This document shows, in pieces, positions 5,568-55,032 of a stretch of 64,000 nt of DNA. Each line of letters begins with the position of its first letter. Within the stretch, counting starts at the first letter, position 1. The notes under the pieces were generated by a model. It was not told the origin of the DNA and did not search any database. It worked only from the letters and a program-made list of their open reading frames with translations. A program made the position numbers and the translations under genes. Source of the stretch: Escherichia coli (lineage in GTDB: Bacteria; Pseudomonadota; Gammaproteobacteria; Enterobacterales; Enterobacteriaceae); assembly GCF_003018255.1 (NCBI RefSeq), contig NZ_CP027440.1, one strand, 5' to 3'.

Positions 5568-5984
5568 TTAATCAATAAACAAGGCGGGAGAAATGCCGAA
5601 TCGCGTTGCCAATTTTTTAGCGTGTTCCAGCGTTAATTTCCTCTTCCCGCTCAAAACGCGTGACACCATCGATTTACTGCCAATTTCCGGAAGATCGGAA
5701 AGGGTTAAACCATATTGATCCATAAGGGTACGAATCACAGCTATACCGCCAGGCATGGCTTGCGCCATGGCATTAAATTCAGCAAATTCGGGCGCTGATT
5801 CTTCCCACGCGGTTATTTTGGCACACACCAGATCCAGCAAGGGGTTTTCAGGATCGTTGAGCAGCAGATGATCTACCAGTTCCAGCGCCTGGGTGTATTG
5901 TTCCTCGTTCTGAATACCCGCCAGAAAAGGTGCCACAGCAGTTAACTTTTCTCCTGCTTGCAAGATGTCGGCAATCGCAATCAT
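5568..5984 (-). CDS. higA: Antitoxin HigA (Xre-family HTH)
   Basis: 138-aa ORF; C-terminal HTH region (LTLEHAKKLATRFGISPALF); start overlaps stop of upstream higB remnant (ATGA). Confidence 0.9.
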   Translation of the reverse strand: MIAIADILQAGEKLTAVAPFLAGIQNEEQYTQALELVDHLLLNDPENPLLDLVCAKITAWEESAPEFAEFNAMAQAMPGGIAVIRTLMDQYGLTLSDLPEIGSKSMVSRVLSGKRKLTLEHAKKLATRFGISPALFID

Positions 5985-6060
5985 TTTTTCCCCTTAGTAC
6001 GATGAACGGCGGTAAAGAAATCGTATTCTTTATGCGTCATAACTTCACGTATGTAGCATA
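5981..6060 (-). pseudogene. higB: higB toxin remnant (C-terminal ~26 codons only)
   Basis: Minus-strand translation gives ...CYIREVMTHKEYDFFTAVHRTKGKK* matching the HigB C-terminus as I recall it; upstream sequence diverges into REP-containing DNA. Confidence 0.5.
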
Positions 6061-39813: not shown

Positions 39814-40190
<377 letters not shown>

Positions 40191-46599: not shown

Positions 46600-46935
46600 A
46601 TGCCCGCTAATGCTCGCTCTAACGCTGTACTGACCACTGAATCAAAGGTCACTATACGCGGACAAACAACTATCCCCGCGCCAGTGCGTGAGGCCTTAAA
46701 ACTGAAGCCTGGCCTGGACAGCATTCATTACGAAATTCTGCCTGGTGGGCAAGTATTTATGTGCCGACTGGGAGATGAACAGGAGGATCATACTATGAAT
46801 GCATTTTTGCGTTTTCTGGATGCAGATATCCAGAACAACCCGCAAAAAACTCGTCCATTCGACATTCAACAAGGAAAGAAACTTGTCGCTGGCATGGACG
46901 TCAACATTGACGATGAGATTGGCGACGACGAATAA
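46600..46935 (+). CDS. prlF: Antitoxin PrlF (SohA), AbrB/SpoVT-type
   Basis: 111-aa ORF ending with acidic tail DDEIGDDE. Confidence 0.85.
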   Translation: MPANARSNAVLTTESKVTIRGQTTIPAPVREALKLKPGLDSIHYEILPGGQVFMCRLGDEQEDHTMNAFLRFLDADIQNNPQKTRPFDIQQGKKLVAGMDVNIDDEIGDDE

Positions 46936-47399
46936 TGGATTTTCCACAAAGGGTTAATGGTTGGGCGCTATATGCTCATCCCTGTTTTCAGGAAACCTAC
47001 GATGCTTTAGTTGCCGAAGTCGAGGCATTAAAGGGAAAAGATCCTGAAAATTATCAGAGAAAAGCTGCCACAAAGTTATTGGCGGTGGTCCATAAAGTGA
47101 TTGAGGAGCATATCACGGTCAATCCATCATCACCGGCATTCCGTCATGGCAAGTCGTTAGGCTCTGGGAAAAATAAAGACTGGTCACTGGTAAAATTTGG
47201 CGCTGGTCGCTATCGTCTCTTCTTTCGTTACAGTGAAAAAGAGAAAGTCATCATTCTGGGATGGATGAACGATGAAAACACGCTGCGCACCTACGGTAAA
47301 AAAACAGATGCCTATACCGTATTCAGTAAAATGTTAAAAAGAGGACATCCTCCTGCCGACTGGGAAAGCCTCACCCAAGAGACAGAAGAAAACCATTGA
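46935..47399 (+). CDS. yhaV: Toxin YhaV (ribonuclease)
   Basis: 154-aa ORF immediately adjacent to prlF. Confidence 0.85.
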   Translation: MDFPQRVNGWALYAHPCFQETYDALVAEVEALKGKDPENYQRKAATKLLAVVHKVIEEHITVNPSSPAFRHGKSLGSGKNKDWSLVKFGAGRYRLFFRYSEKEKVIILGWMNDENTLRTYGKKTDAYTVFSKMLKRGHPPADWESLTQETEENH

Positions 47400-47410
47400 T
47401 GGTGTTCACA

Positions 47411-47448
47411 ATGCCCGCCGAACGCATTGGTGTTGACCAGCGGGCATC
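47411..47448. terminator. Hairpin between convergent yhaV and agaR
   Basis: atgcccgc...gcgggcat inverted repeat. Confidence 0.5.
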
Positions 47449-47453
47449 CTTTC

Positions 47454-48263
47454 TCATTCCCCGACCAGAATCACTTCAACCCCAGCCTTTCTCAGTCCTT
47501 CCAGACTATCCGCAGGAATGCCTTCATCAACAATGATCATGTCGATACGTTGAGTATCAATGATCTTATGTAAACTAGAACGATTGAACTTACTGGAATC
47601 GGTGACCACGATGATCCGTTCCGCAACTTCGCACATCCGACGGTTTAAACGGGCTTCATCTTCATTATGCGTGCTGACGCCACGCTCCAGATCAATAGCA
47701 TCTACACCAAGAAACAGCATATCGAAGTGGTAATTTTGCAGCGATTGCTCAGCCTGATCGCCATAAAAAGATTGTGACTGACGGCGCAAATGCCCGCCGG
47801 TCATCAGCAGCTCAACACCTTCCGCTTCCAGCAACGCATTAGCCACGTTCATACCGTTGGTCATCGCAATTACGTCGGTGTGCTTGCGCATCAGACGAGC
47901 AATCTCAAAAGTGGTAGTCCCGGAATCGAGGATTACCCGATGACCTGGCTGAATCAACTCAACGGCAGCTTTCGCAACGCTGCGTTTCATTGCGGTGTTC
48001 AGCGCGCTTTTATCTTCCACTGATGGCTCGACTGACGGCGTCGTGCTATCGCAGATCAACGCGCCGCCATAGGCACGCACAGCGATCCCCTGCTTTTCCA
48101 GAAACGCCAGATCGTTGCGGATCGTCACAGTAGATACACCATACAACGCCGATAGATCATTAACTTGCACACTTCCTTGCTGGCGCAGGCGTTGAATGAT
48201 CTGCTCTCGTCGCTCACTGGTGCCTGTCACTCGCTTCTCGCCTGAAGCGTCGGTATTACTCAT
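47454..48263 (-). CDS. agaR: DeoR-family repressor of the aga regulon
   Basis: 269-aa ORF with N-terminal HTH. Confidence 0.9.
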
Positions 48264-48269
48264 AGTAAG

Positions 48270-48480
48270 TCCTTTCGTAAAACTTTCGTTTCATTTCGTT
48301 TTGCCTATTAACGCCTTTCTATTAAGCAAATGCAAGCCCACCTTACCCATTGGCGCAAGCTACTCTCGTTTCAGTGGCTTTCATTATGTTTCTTTTGTGA
48401 ATCAGATCAGAAAACTATTATCTTTCGTTTTATTTTTATCTCACCATGACGCAGTATCAACTGAAACAAAACGAAAGATT
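48270..48480. promoter_or_regulatory. agaR / kbaZ divergent promoters with AgaR operator repeats
   Basis: Repeated CTTTCGTTT(C/T)ATTT-type motifs: aactttcgtttcatttcgttttgcc, ctttcgttttatttttatc, gaaacaaaacgaaagatt. Confidence 0.6.
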
Positions 48481-48511
48481 AATATCGCAGTAATCTGAAC
48501 TGGAGAGGAAA

Positions 48512-49792
48512 GTGAAACATCTGACAGAAATGGTGAGACAGCACAAAGCGGGCAAAACAAATGGGATTTATGCCGTTTGTTCCGCACATCCGCTGGTGCT
48601 GGAAGCTGCAATCCGCTACGCCAGTGCAAACCAAACGCCGTTACTGATTGAAGCAACCTCCAATCAGGTGGACCAGTTCGGCGGTTATACCGGAATGACA
48701 CCCGCCGATTTTCGCGGCTTTGTTTGTCAGCTAGCCGACTCGTTGAATTTCCCGCAGGATGCGCTGATTCTGGGTGGCGACCATCTGGGGCCAAACCGCT
48801 GGCAAAACCTGCCTGCCGCTCAGGCAATGGCCAATGCCGATGATTTGATTAAAAGCTACGTGGCGGCAGGATTCAAAAAAATTCACCTTGATTGCAGCAT
48901 GTCCTGTCAGGACGATCCGATTCCCTTAACTGATGATATCGTGGCTGAACGCGCCGCCCGTCTGGCGAAAGTGGCGGAAGAAACCTGCCGTGAACATTTT
49001 GGCGAGGCCGATCTGGTGTATGTCATTGGCACCGAAGTTCCGGTGCCTGGCGGCGCGCATGAAACCTTAAGCGAGCTGGCGGTCACCACACCGGATGCCG
49101 CCCGCGCCACACTGGAAGCCCATCGCCACGCCTTTGAAAAGCAGGGCCTGAATGCCATCTGGCCACGCATTATTGCCCTGGTGGTTCAACCCGGCGTCGA
49201 ATTCGATCACACCAACGTTATTGATTATCAGCCCGCCAAAGCGACCGCCTTAAGCCAGATGGTCGAAAACTACGAAACGCTGATTTTCGAAGCGCACTCT
49301 ACCGATTACCAAACACCGCAATCGCTGCGCCAGCTGGTGATTGACCACTTTGCCATTCTGAAAGTTGGCCCGGCGCTGACCTTTGCCCTGCGTGAAGCTC
49401 TGTTCTCTCTGGCGGCGATTGAAGAAGAACTGGTACCAGCAAAAGCCTGTTCTGGTCTGCGTCAGGTGCTGGAAAACGTGATGCTCGACCGCCCGGAATA
49501 CTGGCAAAGCCACTACCACGGTGACGGCAACGCGCGTCGTCTGGCGCGTGGTTACAGCTACTCGGACCGCGTGCGCTATTACTGGCCAGACAGCCAGATT
49601 GATGACGCTTTCGCTCATCTGGTTCGTAATCTGGCGGATTCACCAATTCCGCTGCCGCTGATCAGCCAGTATCTGCCGCTGCAGTACGTGAAAGTTCGCT
49701 CCGGCGAGCTGCAGCCAACGCTACGGGAACTCATTATCAACCATATTCAGGACATCCTGGCGCAGTACCACACAGCCTGTGAAGGCCAATAA
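48512..49792 (+). CDS. kbaZ: Tagatose-bisphosphate aldolase non-catalytic subunit
   Basis: 426-aa ORF, GTG start. Confidence 0.85.
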
Positions 49793-49814
49793 GCAAAACA
49801 AAGAGGAACACGCT

Positions 49815-50288
49815 ATGCCAAATATTGTTTTAAGCCGGATTGATGAACGCTTGATTCACGGTCAGGTTGGCGTTCAGTGGGTCGGATTTGCGGGGGCAAA
49901 TCTGGTGCTGGTAGCCAACGATGAGGTTGCCGAAGATCCGGTACAACAAAACCTGATGGAAATGGTACTGGCAGAAGGGATCGCCGTACGTTTCTGGACG
50001 CTGCAAAAAGTTATCGACAACATTCATCGCGCCGCCGATCGACAGAAAATCCTGCTGGTTTGTAAAACACCTGCCGATTTCCTGACGCTGGTGAAAGGTG
50101 GCGTTCCGGTGAATCGCATTAACGTTGGCAATATGCACTACGCCAATGGCAAGCAACAAATCGCCAAAACGGTTTCTGTAGATGCGGGCGATATCGCAGC
50201 ATTTAACGACCTGAAAGCCGCTGGAGTGGAATGCTTCGTTCAGGGCGTCCCGACAGAGCCTGCTGTGGACCTCTTTAAATTACTTTGA
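49815..50288 (+). CDS. agaV: PTS GalNAc-specific EIIB
   Basis: 157 aa from MPNIVLSRIDERLIHGQ. Confidence 0.85.
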   Translation: MPNIVLSRIDERLIHGQVGVQWVGFAGANLVLVANDEVAEDPVQQNLMEMVLAEGIAVRFWTLQKVIDNIHRAADRQKILLVCKTPADFLTLVKGGVPVNRINVGNMHYANGKQQIAKTVSVDAGDIAAFNDLKAAGVECFVQGVPTEPAVDLFKLL

Positions 50289-50298
50289 GGGATTCATC

Positions 50299-51078
50299 AT
50301 GGAAATCAGTCTGTTGCAGGCATTCGCGTTGGGCATTATCGCCTTTATCGCTGGCCTGGATATGTTTAACGGCCTAACCCATATGCACCGCCCGGTGGTC
50401 CTCGGCCCGTTGGTCGGGCTGGTACTTGGCGATCTGCATACCGGTATTTTAACCGGCGGTACGCTGGAACTGGTGTGGATGGGGCTGGCCCCGCTGGCGG
50501 GCGCACAGCCGCCTAACGTGATTATCGGTACTATCGTCGGCACGGCGTTTGCCATTACTACTGGCGTGAAACCCGATGTTGCAGTCGGTGTCGCCGTACC
50601 TTTCGCTGTCGCAGTACAGATGGGGATTACCTTCCTGTTCTCGGTGATGTCTGGCGTAATGTCCCGCTGTGACCGGATGGCAGAGAACGCCGATACACGC
50701 GGCATTGAACGCGTGAACTATCTGGCACTGCTGGCACTCGGCACTTTCTATTTTCTCTGCGCTTTCCTGCCTATCTACTTCGGCGCGGAACATGCAAAAA
50801 CCATCATTGATGTCCTACCGCAACGATTAATCGACGGCCTCGGCGTCGCGGGCGGCATCATGCCAGCAATCGGTTTTGCCGTGCTGCTGAAAATCATGAT
50901 GAAAAACGTCTACATCCCCTACTTCATCCTGGGCTTTGTTGCCGCAGCCTGGCTCAAGTTACCGGTGCTGGCTATTGCTGCCGCCGCGCTGGCGATGGCG
51001 CTGATCGACCTGCTGCGTAAATCTCCTGAACCGACTCAACCTGCGGCACAGAAAGAGGAATTTGAAGATGGCATCTAA
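50299..51078 (+). CDS. agaW: PTS GalNAc-specific EIIC (full length)
   Basis: 259-aa ORF. Confidence 0.85.
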   Translation: MEISLLQAFALGIIAFIAGLDMFNGLTHMHRPVVLGPLVGLVLGDLHTGILTGGTLELVWMGLAPLAGAQPPNVIIGTIVGTAFAITTGVKPDVAVGVAVPFAVAVQMGITFLFSVMSGVMSRCDRMAENADTRGIERVNYLALLALGTFYFLCAFLPIYFGAEHAKTIIDVLPQRLIDGLGVAGGIMPAIGFAVLLKIMMKNVYIPYFILGFVAAAWLKLPVLAIAAAALAMALIDLLRKSPEPTQPAAQKEEFEDGI

Positions 51079-51946
51079 TCAAACCACCCTGCCGAACGTC
51101 AGTGAAAACGAAGAAACACTGCTGACAGGCGTCAATGAAAACGTGTATGAAGATCAGAGCATTGGCGCAGAGCTGACGAAAAAAGATATCAACCGCGTCG
51201 CCTGGCGTTCCATGCTGTTACAAGCGTCTTTTAACTACGAACGTATGCAGGCTTCTGGCTGGTTGTACGGTCTGCTGCCTGCTCTGAAAAAGATCCACAC
51301 TAATAAACGCGACCTGGCGCGCGCCATGAAGGGGCATATGGGTTTCTTCAATACCCATCCGTTTCTGGTGACGTTTGTTATCGGCATTATCCTTGCGATG
51401 GAGCGTTCTAAGCAGGACGTTAACAGTATTCAGAGCACCAAAATTGCCGTCGGTGCGCCGCTCGGCGGGATTGGCGATGCGATGTTCTGGCTAACGCTAC
51501 TGCCGATTTGTGGCGGGATAGGCGCAAGCCTCGCGCTACAAGGCTCTATTCTTGGCGCAGTCGTCTTTATTGTGCTGTTCAACGTGGTACACCTGGGGCT
51601 GCGTTTTGGTCTGGCGCATTATGCTTACCGCATGGGCGTGGCGGCGATTCCACTCATTAAAGCGAATACCAAAAAAGTCGGCCATGCTGCGTCAATCGTT
51701 GGGATGACGGTAATCGGCGCGCTGGTGGCAACCTATGTTCGTTTAAGCACCACGCTGGAAATCACCGCTGGCGACGCAGTGGTTAAGTTACAGGCTGATG
51801 TTATCGACAAACTGATGCCAGCCTTCTTACCGCTGGTCTACACCCTGACCATGTTCTGGCTGGTACGCCGCGGCTGGAGTCCGCTGCGCCTGATTGCAGT
51901 GACCGTGGTTCTCGGCATCGTCGGTAAATTCTGCCATTTCCTTTAA
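51068..51946 (+). CDS. agaE: PTS GalNAc-specific EIID
   Basis: Start MASNQ overlapping agaW end by 11 nt, same architecture as agaC/agaD. Confidence 0.8.
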   Translation: MASNQTTLPNVSENEETLLTGVNENVYEDQSIGAELTKKDINRVAWRSMLLQASFNYERMQASGWLYGLLPALKKIHTNKRDLARAMKGHMGFFNTHPFLVTFVIGIILAMERSKQDVNSIQSTKIAVGAPLGGIGDAMFWLTLLPICGGIGASLALQGSILGAVVFIVLFNVVHLGLRFGLAHYAYRMGVAAIPLIKANTKKVGHAASIVGMTVIGALVATYVRLSTTLEITAGDAVVKLQADVIDKLMPAFLPLVYTLTMFWLVRRGWSPLRLIAVTVVLGIVGKFCHFL

Positions 51947-51963
51947 ATACAATGAGGTATTAG

Positions 51964-52398
51964 ATGTTAAGTATTATTTTGACAGGGCATGGCGGGTTTG
52001 CCAGTGGCATGGAAAAAGCAATGAAGCAAATCCTCGGCGAGCAATCGCAGTTTATTGCCATCGATTTTCCGGAAACCTCAAGCACCGCGCTGCTTACATC
52101 GCAGCTTGAAGAGGCCATCGCCCAACTGGATTGTGAAGACGGCATTGTTTTTCTGACGGATTTGCTGGGCGGCACGCCGTTTCGCGTAGCTTCAACGCTG
52201 GCGATGCAAAAACTGGGCTGTGAAGTGATTACCGGCACCAATTTGCAACTGCTACTGGAGATGGTGCTGGAGCGCGAAGGGTTAAGCGGTGAAGAGTTTC
52301 GTGTGCAGGCGCTGGAGTGTGGACATCGTGGGCTGACCAGTCTGGTGGACGAGTTAGGCCGCTGCCATGAGGAATGTCCGGTCGAGGAAGGAATATGA
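51964..52398 (+). CDS. agaF: PTS GalNAc/GalN EIIA
   Basis: 144-aa ORF. Confidence 0.8.
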   Translation: MLSIILTGHGGFASGMEKAMKQILGEQSQFIAIDFPETSSTALLTSQLEEAIAQLDCEDGIVFLTDLLGGTPFRVASTLAMQKLGCEVITGTNLQLLLEMVLEREGLSGEEFRVQALECGHRGLTSLVDELGRCHEECPVEEGI

Positions 52399-53528
52399 CA
52401 CCCGTTTTGCGCGCCAGAAGGCTGCTGACTGAAGAGGGATGGCTCGATGACCATCAGTTGCGTATTGCTGACGGTGTAATCGCAGAAATCGAACCGATTC
52501 CAGTGGGCGTGACTGAACGCGATGCGGAACTGCTCTGCCCCGCTTACATCGACACCCATGTACACGGTGGTGCGGGCGTTGATGTAATGGATGACGCGCT
52601 GGATGTGCTCGACAAGCTGGCAATGCACAAAGCACGCGAAGGTGTCGGCAGTTGGTTACCGACCACCGTAACCGCGCCGCTTAATACCATTCATGCGGCG
52701 CTGGAACGTATTGCTCAACGTTGCCAACGCGGCGGACCTGGTGCACAAATACTGGGGAGTTATCTCGAAGGACCGTACTTCACGCCGCAGAATAAAGGCG
52801 CGCATCCGCCGGAGCTGTTTCGCGAGCTGGAAATTGCCGAGCTGGATCAATTGATTGCCGTTTCTCAGCACACCTTGCGCGTGGTGGCGCTGGCACCGGA
52901 AAAAGAAGGGGCATTGCAGGCCATCCGCCATCTTAAACAGCAAAACGTAAGGGTGATGCTGGGGCATAGCGCGGCGACCTGGCAACAAACCCGCGCCGCG
53001 TTTGATGCTGGTGCCGACGGCCTGGTGCATTGCTATAACGGGATGACAGGTTTACATCACCGCGAACCGGGAATGGTTGGCGCGGGATTAACGGACAAGC
53101 GCGCCTGGCTGGAACTGATAGCCGATGGTCATCATGTGCATCCGGCGGCGATGTCGCTGTGTTGTTGCTGTGCGAAAGAGAGAATCGTGCTGATCACCGA
53201 CGCGATGCAGGCAGCCGGGATGCCGGATGGTCGCTATACGTTATGTGGCGAAGAAGTGCAGATGCACGGTGGCGTTGTCCGTACCGCGTCCGGTGGGCTG
53301 GCGGGCAGTACGCTGTCTGTTGATGCGGCAGTGCGCAACATGGTTGAGTTGGCGGGTGTAACGCCTGCGGAAGCCATCCATATGGCATCGCTGCATCCGG
53401 CGCGTATGCTGGGTGTTGATGATGTTCTGGGATCGCTTAAACCGGGCAAACGCGCCAGCGTCGTTGCGCTGGATAGCGGGCTGCATGTGCAACAAATCTG
53501 GATTCAGGGTCAATTAGCTTCGTTTTGA
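52395..53528 (+). CDS. agaA: N-acetylgalactosamine-6-phosphate deacetylase (full length)
   Basis: ATG at 52395 overlapping agaF stop; 377 aa; metal-binding HVHGG motif. Confidence 0.85.
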   Translation: MTPVLRARRLLTEEGWLDDHQLRIADGVIAEIEPIPVGVTERDAELLCPAYIDTHVHGGAGVDVMDDALDVLDKLAMHKAREGVGSWLPTTVTAPLNTIHAALERIAQRCQRGGPGAQILGSYLEGPYFTPQNKGAHPPELFRELEIAELDQLIAVSQHTLRVVALAPEKEGALQAIRHLKQQNVRVMLGHSAATWQQTRAAFDAGADGLVHCYNGMTGLHHREPGMVGAGLTDKRAWLELIADGHHVHPAAMSLCCCCAKERIVLITDAMQAAGMPDGRYTLCGEEVQMHGGVVRTASGGLAGSTLSVDAAVRNMVELAGVTPAEAIHMASLHPARMLGVDDVLGSLKPGKRASVVALDSGLHVQQIWIQGQLASF

Positions 53529-53603
53529 TGGTTTGCTCCTTTATTGGGCCTTCACTTCCCCCGTAAGGCCTTTCTTTTTCTTTCGTTTTGATCTGTGCAG
53601 CGG

Positions 53604-53687
53604 TGTCGGATGCGACGCTAATGCGCCTTATCCGACCTACGGTTGGTGACCGTAAGGCCGGATAAAGTATTTACGCCGCATCCAGCA
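53604..53687. repeat. REP/BIME palindromic repeats
   Basis: gtgtcggatgcgacgctaatgcgccttatccgacctacgg and gtaaggccggataaagtatttacgccgcatccagc. Confidence 0.8.
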
Positions 53688-53734
53688 ATCCCTTTTACTT
53701 CCCTTGTCTTTTCTTTCAACGATCACAGATTTCG

Positions 53735-53840
53735 TTTTATTTCCTTTTTCTCCATTGAACTTTCAGTTTCTTTTCTATAGATTTTAACCAACGAAAGAAA
53801 TCACCAAGTGAAATGAAACGAAAGGCAAACGAAAGCGACA
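53735..53840 (+). promoter_or_regulatory. agaS promoter with AgaR operator repeats
   Basis: tttcgttttatttcc, aactttcagtttctttt, gaaatgaaacgaaaggcaaacgaaagcg repeats. Confidence 0.55.
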
Positions 53841-53877
53841 ACGCCGACGTCAAGTTCATCAGACTAAGGATTGAGTT

Positions 53878-55032
53878 ATGCCAGAAAATTACACCCCTGC
53901 TGCTGCCGCAACCGATACATGGACTGAAGAAGAGATCCGCCATCAGCCTCGCGCATGGATCCGTTCACTCACCAACATCGACGCGCTACGTTCCGCGCTC
54001 AATAACTTCCTTGAACCGTTACTGCGCAAAGAGAATCTGCAAATCATCCTGACCGGAGCCGGAACCTCGGCATTTATCGGTGACATCATCGCGCCGTGGC
54101 TCGCCAGTCATACCGGTAAAAACTTCAGCGCCGTACCGACCACCGATCTGGTCACTAATCCGATGGACTACCTGAATCCAGCTCATCCGCTGCTGTTGAT
54201 CTCCTTCGGTCGATCCGGCAACAGCCCGGAAAGCGTCGCTGCCGTGGAACTGGCAAATCAATTTGTACCCGAGTGCTATCACCTGCCGATCACCTGCAAC
54301 GAAGCGGGCGCTCTTTACCAAAACGCGATCAACAGCGACAACGCGTTTGCCCTACTGATGCCCGCAGAAACGCACGACCGCGGCTTTGCGATGACCAGCA
54401 GCATTACCACCATGATGGCCAGTTGCCTCGCGGTTTTCGCACCTGAGACGATCAACAGCCAGAGCTTCCGCGACGTGGCGGATCGTTGCCAGGCGATCCT
54501 GACCTCACTGGGCGATTTCAGCGAAGGTGTGTTTGGTTACGCACCGTGGAAACGGATCGTTTATCTCGGCAGCGGTGGCTTACAGGGCGCAGCACGCGAG
54601 TCGGCGCTGAAAGTGCTGGAACTGACAGCGGGTAAACTGGCGGCCTTCTATGATTCCCCGACCGGATTCCGTCATGGCCCGAAATCGCTGGTCGATAACG
54701 AAACGCTGGTGGTGGTATTTGTCTCCAGCCACCCTTACACCCGTCAGTATGATCTTGATCTGCTGGCAGAACTCCGCCGCGATAACCAGGCAATGCGCGT
54801 AATCGCCATCGCCGCGGAAAGCAATGACGTTATTACTGCCGGTCCACATATCATCCTGCCGCCGTCCCGTCACTTTATCGACGTTGAGCAGGCATTTTGC
54901 TTCCTGATGTACGCCCAGACATTTGCACTGATGCAGTCGCTGCACATGGGTAATACACCGGATACCCCATCAGCCAGTGGCACCGTTAACCGCGTGGTGC
55001 AAGGCGTAATCATTCATCCGTGGCAGGCATAA
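53878..55032 (+). CDS. agaS: Galactosamine-6-phosphate deaminase/isomerase (SIS domains)
   Basis: 384-aa ORF. Confidence 0.9.
   Translation: MPENYTPAAAATDTWTEEEIRHQPRAWIRSLTNIDALRSALNNFLEPLLRKENLQIILTGAGTSAFIGDIIAPWLASHTGKNFSAVPTTDLVTNPMDYLNPAHPLLLISFGRSGNSPESVAAVELANQFVPECYHLPITCNEAGALYQNAINSDNAFALLMPAETHDRGFAMTSSITTMMASCLAVFAPETINSQSFRDVADRCQAILTSLGDFSEGVFGYAPWKRIVYLGSGGLQGAARESALKVLELTAGKLAAFYDSPTGFRHGPKSLVDNETLVVVFVSSHPYTRQYDLDLLAELRRDNQAMRVIAIAAESNDVITAGPHIILPPSRHFIDVEQAFCFLMYAQTFALMQSLHMGNTPDTPSASGTVNRVVQGVIIHPWQA

Follow-up and report, generated by a model that had tools for sequence, protein, structure and literature searches.

The region described here lies in the window, by which the whole analysed stretch of 64 kb of an Escherichia coli chromosome is meant, and comprises an intact aga/gam cluster with the arrangement agaR / kbaZ-agaVWEFA / agaS-kbaY-agaBCDI. 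Positions 47400-54000 share 99.8% identity with many E. coli chromosomes, and at least 80% of this segment is present in 4930 of 5426 complete E. coli genomes (about 91%). In a near-identical strain annotated by RefSeq, the genes follow in the order garD, prlF, yhaV, agaR (minus strand), kbaZ, agaV, agaW, agaE, agaF, agaA, agaS, kbaY, agaB, agaC, agaD, agaI, rsmI and lpoA, with agaA carrying the label nagA. The genes and gaps that frame the repeats are the following:

47454-48263, minus strand: agaR, gene of a DeoR-family repressor (ORF list, RefSeq annotation of the 99.8% identical strain, Pfam, NCBIfam)
48264-48511: agaR-kbaZ gap, 248 bp
48512-49792, plus strand: kbaZ (agaZ), first gene of the kbaZ-agaVWEFA operon (ORF list, RefSeq annotation)
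53529-53877: agaA-agaS gap, 349 bp
53878-55032, plus strand: agaS, first gene of agaS-kbaY-agaBCDI (ORF list, RefSeq annotation)

In a Pfam search, the AgaR protein shows an HTH_DeoR domain (PF08220) together with a DeoRC sensor domain (PF00455). It passes the NCBIfam AgaR equivalog model with 465 bits at a cut-off of 260, and the E. coli DeoR-family paralogues SrlR, GlpR, YgbI, YciT, UlaR, DeoR and FucR rank below it in the same comparison. Immediately downstream of agaR, at a distance of 54 bp from the agaR stop, come prlF and yhaV (46600-47399), which form a type II toxin-antitoxin pair. Elsewhere in the window a higA antitoxin gene (5568-6058) is accompanied by only a 78-nt higB remnant, a pseudogene in the near-identical reference strain, and most of the toxin partner has been lost here. 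Scanning the window against Rfam gave rnpB (RNase P RNA, class A) at 39814-40190 as the sole match at the gathering threshold and found no RNA family overlapping the two aga gaps.

Copies of a short motif in both orientations within 48270-48480 and again within 53580-53840 had been pointed out in a preliminary description of this DNA, and copies are indeed found there on both strands. The exact string CTTTCGTTT has six matches in the 64 kb, all of them within the agaR-kbaZ or the agaA-agaS gap (48283, 48422 and 53580 on the plus strand; 48469-77, 53816-24 and 53827-35 on the minus strand), compared with 0.85 expected, and a count of six was reached in none of 100 shuffles. Equally, TTTCRTTTYRTTT with at most one mismatch matches nine times, eight of these inside the two gaps. 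Both gaps are AT-rich, with GC contents of 0.36 and 0.43, which would fit the notion that the copies simply reflect a T-rich, low-GC intergenic composition and lack a specific function; yet 10 copies of the core TTTCRTTT are packed into the 597 bp of the aga gaps, compared with 2 in the remaining 29 intergenic regions (5796 bp in total), delimited by genes that were BLAST-mapped onto the window (Poisson P ~3e-14), and such an origin is exceedingly improbable. An equal frequency in other AT-rich intergenic DNA, which the preliminary description had named as the observation that would speak against operators, is not seen, since other intergenic regions with a GC content of at most 0.42 hold 2 cores in 2708 bp. 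Furthermore, dinucleotide-preserving shuffles of each aga gap alone gave means of 0.13 and 0.21 cores vs five observed in each gap, a count reached in 0 of 2000 shuffles. As the aga gaps exceed both other AT-rich intergenic DNA and their own local shuffles, local T-richness does not explain the motif.

The 24-nt string WRMMTTTCRTTTYRTTTYNYTTKK, which is reportedly the published AgaR consensus, has two exact matches in the 64-kb window, at 48280-48303 on the plus strand and 53804-53827 on the minus strand. With up to three mismatches, it has six matches, all of them in the two aga gaps and none elsewhere in the 64 kb, so that a scan with the AgaR consensus, proposed beforehand as a check, pointed to these two gaps only. 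A literature search for this string and for the operators themselves gave only primer and terminator strings, none of them relevant. A PWM built from the conserved sites and run over both strands (128 kb of scanned strand) placed eight sites at 20-31 bits, compared with 8.0 bits for the best non-aga match, whereby the scores of seven of the eight are circular because those sites trained the PWM, while only the background and the score of the site called O_T, which did not contribute to the training, are independent. Across 73 orthologous loci, 495 PWM matches of at least 14 bits fall into the two control regions vs 57 elsewhere in 1.09 Mb, and most of the 57 outlying matches are agaS upstream regions that the filter had missed.

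The operator unit of about 21-24 bp is asymmetric, with an information-rich core CTTTCGTTTYRTTTC that is made up of tandem TTTYR pentamers. The wording of PMC4694137, in which a single operator is a palindrome, was considered and rejected as the units are asymmetric and only pairs of operators are inverted. Four sites are present in each aga gap, with the orientation + + + − in both if O_T is counted. Those in the agaR-kbaZ gap are given below together with the promoter elements and the CRP-like site that they accompany (coordinates of the PWM match in brackets; mismatches of operators refer to WRMMTTTCRTTTYRTTTYNYTTKK):

48280-48303 (PWM 48281-48301), plus strand: O_R, predicted AgaR operator AAACTTTCGTTTCATTTCGTTTTG, 0 mismatches, top PWM score of 30.8 bits
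48307-48335, minus strand: putative agaR promoter P_R, -35 TTGCAT (48335->48330), 17-nt spacer, -10 GTTAAT (48312->48307)
48375-48398 (PWM 48376-48396), plus strand: O_Z1, predicted AgaR operator TGGCTTTCATTATGTTTCTTTTGT, 2 mismatches, 24.2 bits, abutting the CRP-like site
48396-48411, plus strand: CRP-like site TGTGAATCAGATCAGA, 1 mismatch to TGTGA-N6-TCACA
48419-48442 (PWM 48420-48440), plus strand: O_Z2, predicted AgaR operator TATCTTTCGTTTTATTTTTATCTC, 26.9 bits, conserved, over the putative kbaZ -35
48455-48460, plus strand: -10 of the putative kbaZ promoter P_Z, TATCAA, with the form TATNAA across genera (conserved T-A-T-x-A-A columns)
48457-48480 (PWM 48459-48479), minus strand: O_Z3, predicted AgaR operator AATCTTTCGTTTTGTTTCAGTTGA, 29.3 bits, inverted relative to O_Z2

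A scan with the AgaR protein, restricted to one genome per species, identified 80 orthologous loci in Escherichia, Citrobacter, Klebsiella, Raoultella, Enterobacter, Kluyvera, Buttiauxella, Yersinia, Serratia, Cedecea and others, as well as in Salmonella enterica subspecies arizonae and diarizonae, with a largely conserved gene order. The agaR-kbaZ gap measures 248-251 bp in 66 of 74 loci, and alignment of the 73 unique gaps displays sharp conserved blocks, which are, in order, O_R; TATTAA and ATGCAA; O_Z1 directly with TGTGAATCAGATCAGA; O_Z2; TATNAA; O_Z3; and the kbaZ ribosome-binding site (GGAGAGGAAA) with the GTG start codon. This position-specific conservation across genera, while the intervening stretch 48339-48376 diverges freely, equally speaks against base composition as the origin of the motif copies. 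O_R is kept as CTTTCGTTTCATTTC in 72 of the 73 unique sequences and O_Z1 is conserved as CTTTCATTATGTTTCTTTTGT; counted over both gaps, seven of the eight sites are conserved, each in 29 to 73 unique sequences. The arrangement + + + − is found in 60 of the 73 agaR-kbaZ gaps with start-to-start spacings of 95-98 bp (mostly 96) from O_R to O_Z1 in 56 of the 60, of exactly 44 bp from O_Z1 to O_Z2 in 60/60 and of 38-39 bp from O_Z2 to O_Z3, again in 60/60. O_Z2 and O_Z3 form an inverted repeat (48420-48435 vs 48464-48479) that is 94% complementary. The TGTGA half of the CRP-like site and its spacer are conserved across genera, and the agaZ promoter is reportedly dependent on cAMP-CRP. Two further candidates in this gap were set aside: CTTTCG at 48272-48277, at first a candidate for an additional operator, is the Shine-Dalgarno sequence of agaR read on the opposite strand, where only TCCYT is conserved, and a terminator-like match at 48357-48380 falls in the sole non-conserved stretch of the gap.

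The agaA-agaS gap is longer and holds, in addition to its operator sites, a terminator and a dispersed repeat:

53546-53590, plus strand: intrinsic terminator after agaA, hairpin 53546-53571 followed by the T-tract TTTCTTTTTCTTTCGTTTT
53567-53590 (PWM 53568-53588), plus strand: O_T, operator-like site GGCCTTTCTTTTTCTTTCGTTTTG, 3 mismatches, 22.1 bits, including the copy at 53580 of the preliminary description
53591-53682, no strand assigned: REP/BIME-type dispersed repeat, between the agaA terminator and the agaS promoter
53726-53749 (PWM 53727-53747), plus strand: O_S1, predicted AgaR operator CAGATTTCGTTTTATTTCCTTTTT, 2 mismatches, 27.7 bits, conserved, just upstream of the putative agaS -35
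53755-53783, plus strand: putative agaS promoter P_S, -35 TTGAAC (53755-60), -10 TAGATT (53778-83)
53757-53780 (PWM 53758-53778), plus strand: O_S2, predicted AgaR operator GAACTTTCAGTTTCTTTTCTATAG, 20.4 bits, in the P_S spacer
53790-53835, minus strand: extra lineage-specific motif copies, AACGAAAGAAA at 53790-53800 and AAACGAAAG at 53827-53835
53804-53827 (PWM 53806-53826), minus strand: O_S3, predicted AgaR operator TGCCTTTCGTTTCATTTCACTTGG, 0 mismatches, 26.9 bits, inverted

The promoter-proximal operator cluster spans 53726-53827, and the agaS upstream region is conserved in the blocks O_S1, TTGAAC (53755-53760), O_S2, TATAGATTT (53776-53784) and O_S3. Among the 53 agaS upstream regions, 35 have the arrangement + + + −, with proximal spacings of 30-32 bp between O_S1 and O_S2 and 47-49 bp between O_S2 and O_S3 in the orthologous loci. 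O_S1 and O_S3 form an inverted repeat (53730-53743 vs 53810-53823) that is 93% complementary, and O_S3 would be situated in the agaS leader, at about +15 to +37 relative to the putative promoter. The additional copies at 53790-53800 and 53827-53835 show low conservation across genera and are Escherichia- or strain-specific; K-12 has AAGTGAAAG at 53827-35, without the extra exact copy. The REP/BIME-type repeat, which has the internal inverted repeats I5, I7 and I8, occurs in 5425 of 5426 E. coli genomes at a median of 22 places per genome, is absent at the equivalent position in other genera and is not part of the operator array. The array that the preliminary description had extended from 53580 to 53840 therefore needs to be qualified: as in 48270-48480, the motif is present, but some of the copies are not conserved and the segment is not one continuous array, because the REP element separates the distal, terminator-embedded site from the promoter-proximal cluster.

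This distal site O_T deserves separate consideration. The hairpin of the agaA terminator folds 18 nt past the agaA stop codon and seven of its nine stem pairs covary, with changes on both sides and pairing kept, in 37 species; a simple terminator scan missed it, probably since the interrupted stem did not fit its rule. That O_T is only the U-tract of this terminator and no AgaR operator, with its likeness to the consensus derived from the end of the GC-stem and the T-rich run, has roughly an even chance of being correct. The site lies directly 3' of the covarying hairpin in a classic terminator layout and carries pyrimidines at the two R positions of the core, whereas its tract CTTTCTTTTYCTTTC is invariant in the same 37 diverse sequences in which the adjoining stem changes freely, and its 22.1 bits were assigned by a PWM that never saw O_T, against a background maximum of 8.0. 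The distance between O_T and O_S1 is not conserved, being 47, 99-103 or 144 bp in orthologous loci and 159 bp in the window, such that there is no constant helical phase, which argues against a phased loop. Furthermore, the string CTTTCGTTTTATTT is found in unrelated constructs and primers as well, where we take it to be derived from the rrnB T1 terminator. Judged from sequence, the invariance of the tract and its score are compatible with a dual role as terminator and operator, which O_T may have at about even weight with the terminator-only reading. A more far-reaching proposal, in which the T-tract is a real fourth operator of the agaS region, both aga regions share the arrangement + + + −, and one element ends the upstream operon and anchors or roadblocks repression downstream, is regarded as rather doubtful. 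O_T is the sole element of the array not placed in the literature searched. In most non-Escherichia genera, a conserved CTTTCATTGTG box follows right after the agaA stop codon, before the terminator hairpin (alignment A1, columns 3-12); it is missing in the window and might represent a further half operator or belong to the 3' end of agaA.

The operator sites are arranged around -35/-10-like hexamers that are conserved and around the CRP-like site, the hexamers having been assigned by inference from conservation. In the agaR-kbaZ gap, CTATTAA (48305-48311; TATTAA at 48306-48311) shows 100% conservation across the 73 gaps and ATGCAA (48330-48335) is nearly invariant, and this conserved 48305-48335 block probably represents the minus-strand promoter of agaR; as its -10 would be an unusual GTTAAT, the block may alternatively serve another role. 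The P_R spacer includes a conserved half-site-like box, CCTTTCT(T/A)TT (CCTTTCT at 48314-48320). Two minus-strand promoter-like matches, 48460-48432 and 48444-48417, were considered as agaR promoter and rejected, their -35 parts not being conserved. P_Z would have a poor -35 under O_Z2, and with its -10 at 48455-48460 the centre of the CRP-like site would be near -61.5. Conservation of the P_S block extends from Escherichia as far as Yersinia and Serratia. All these promoter positions are taken from conservation alone because a sigma-70 consensus promoter scan gave, at its threshold, no match on the expected strands in the aga gaps.

Taken together, the repeats very probably serve as operators for AgaR, the product of the adjoining gene and a DeoR/GlpR-family repressor of the E. 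coli N-acetylgalactosamine (GalNAc) and galactosamine (GalN) genes. The multi-operator arrangement of a DeoR-type repressor, as which the preliminary description had interpreted the motif copies, is supported by the AgaR equivalog that adjoins the sites, by the conservation of the sites and their spacing and by reports of AgaR binding. Passages of PMC3668189, PMC4694137 and PMC12226905, citing Ray & Larson 2004, state that AgaR binds and represses the promoters upstream of agaR, kbaZ/agaZ and agaS, and that in K-12 this binding and relief of the repression by inducer have been reported; autoregulation of AgaR and repression of agaZ and agaS are stated in a passage of PMC4694137. According to passages of PMC3668189, again citing Ray & Larson 2004, GalNAc induces Pz-lacZ 5-fold and Ps-lacZ 20-fold, and deletion of agaR raises the expression of agaA and agaS 50- to 175-fold on glycerol. 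Equally, loss-of-function mutations in agaR lead to higher expression of the aga PTS (PMC9628945), a RegulonDB-derived remark ascribes several AgaR sites to agaSp and two to agaRp (PMC9189660, PMC8265036), and the aga region has been described to combine CRP and repressor sites (PMC12226905). Binding of the repeats by a different protein, be it a paralogous DeoR-type regulator, of which E. coli has several, or a nucleoid protein with a preference for T-rich curved DNA, with AgaR acting elsewhere, is very unlikely in view of the co-occurrence of the sites with agaR orthologues in every genus sampled, their near absence from 1.09 Mb of flanking DNA, the assignment of binding at the three promoter regions to AgaR and the derepression of agaA and agaS upon agaR deletion in the passages cited above.

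With the repeats as AgaR operators, repression and induction might proceed as follows. If GalNAc/GalN is absent, oligomeric AgaR would occupy the operators cooperatively and keep RNA polymerase out, probably together with CRP in the case of the kbaZ promoter, until a sugar-derived inducer releases the repressor. The agaR transcript would start within O_R, such that AgaR would repress its own synthesis by occlusion. At the divergent promoter, O_Z1 and O_Z2 would flank the CRP site with O_Z2 covering the kbaZ -35, while the inverted O_Z3 would cover the -10 and +1 of P_Z; at agaS, O_S1 would lie upstream of, O_S2 inside and O_S3 downstream of the core promoter. The fixed distances between the sites, above all the approximately 96 bp from O_R to O_Z1, which correspond to about nine turns of the helix, are suggestive of an oligomer that binds cooperatively, as is the case for other DeoR/GlpR-family systems.

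Multi-operator control of the agaR, agaZ/kbaZ and agaS promoters by AgaR has reportedly been established by footprinting and reporter fusions, and the standard databases of E. coli regulation list it. The AgaR operators of K-12 belong to the same locus, regulator and three promoter regions as those of the window (Ray & Larson 2004, Mol Microbiol 51:813, PMID 14731281). The two sequences differ at 4 positions in the agaR-kbaZ gap and at 18 in the agaA-agaS gap, and all eight main sites have identical 15-bp cores, so that the K-12 results transfer directly to the window. On the K-12 MG1655 chromosome (NC_000913.3), the corresponding positions are 3278682-3278705 for O_R, 3278777-3278800 for O_Z1, 3278798-3278813 for the CRP-like site, 3278821-3278844 for O_Z2, 3278859-3278882 for O_Z3, 3281664-3281687 for O_T, 3281823-3281846 for O_S1, 3281854-3281877 for O_S2 and 3281901-3281924 for O_S3. 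On the other hand, agaW-agaE-agaF-agaA is intact in the window (49793-53528), whereas K-12 (locus L083, 4702-5626) retains the pseudogene remnants agaW' and agaA'. AgaR operator arrays are thus already known, from K-12 since 2004, and the array carries little weight as a discovery. Its correct recognition in a description made without tools is useful as a validation. The comparative analysis adds the modest detail of an asymmetric unit of pentamer repeats and of a four-site + + + − geometry and spacing conserved across Enterobacterales; furthermore, some of the E. coli copies are lineage-specific, and one copy coincides with a terminator T-tract (CTTTCTTTTTCTTTC).

In other DeoR-family systems of E. 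coli, DeoR acts through the operators O1, O2 and OE and GlpR through tandem operators, both palindromic. The aga array resembles these multi-operator systems in the HTH and DeoRC architecture of the repressor, in the several operators per control region that lie upstream of, over and downstream of the core promoter, in a CRP-dependent promoter and in conserved inter-operator distances. It differs from them in its unit, which is asymmetric with direct TTTYR pentamers in place of a palindrome, inverted symmetry being seen only for the pairs O_Z2/O_Z3 and O_S1/O_S3. A further likeness is offered by TagR of the tagatose cluster of E. coli Nissle, a DeoR-family repressor encoded divergently to the catabolic operon that it accompanies; its predicted operators contain CTTTC (tagO1 = CTTTCAAAATGAAAGTAAA) and face opposite ways beside a CRP site (PMC12226905). 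The authors of that work themselves note the resemblance of the TagR region to the aga region; however, regulator, effector and locus are other ones, and two predicted operators compare with four per region for AgaR (PMC12226905).

Outside the two known control regions, an extra AgaR-like site is located about 270 bp beyond the agaR 3' end in six loci of Citrobacter and relatives (L015, L020, L029, L032, L040 and L062). With the form C[AG]CTTTCGTT[TA]T[CG]TTT... and 17-22 bits, this site hints at an additional regulon member in this group.
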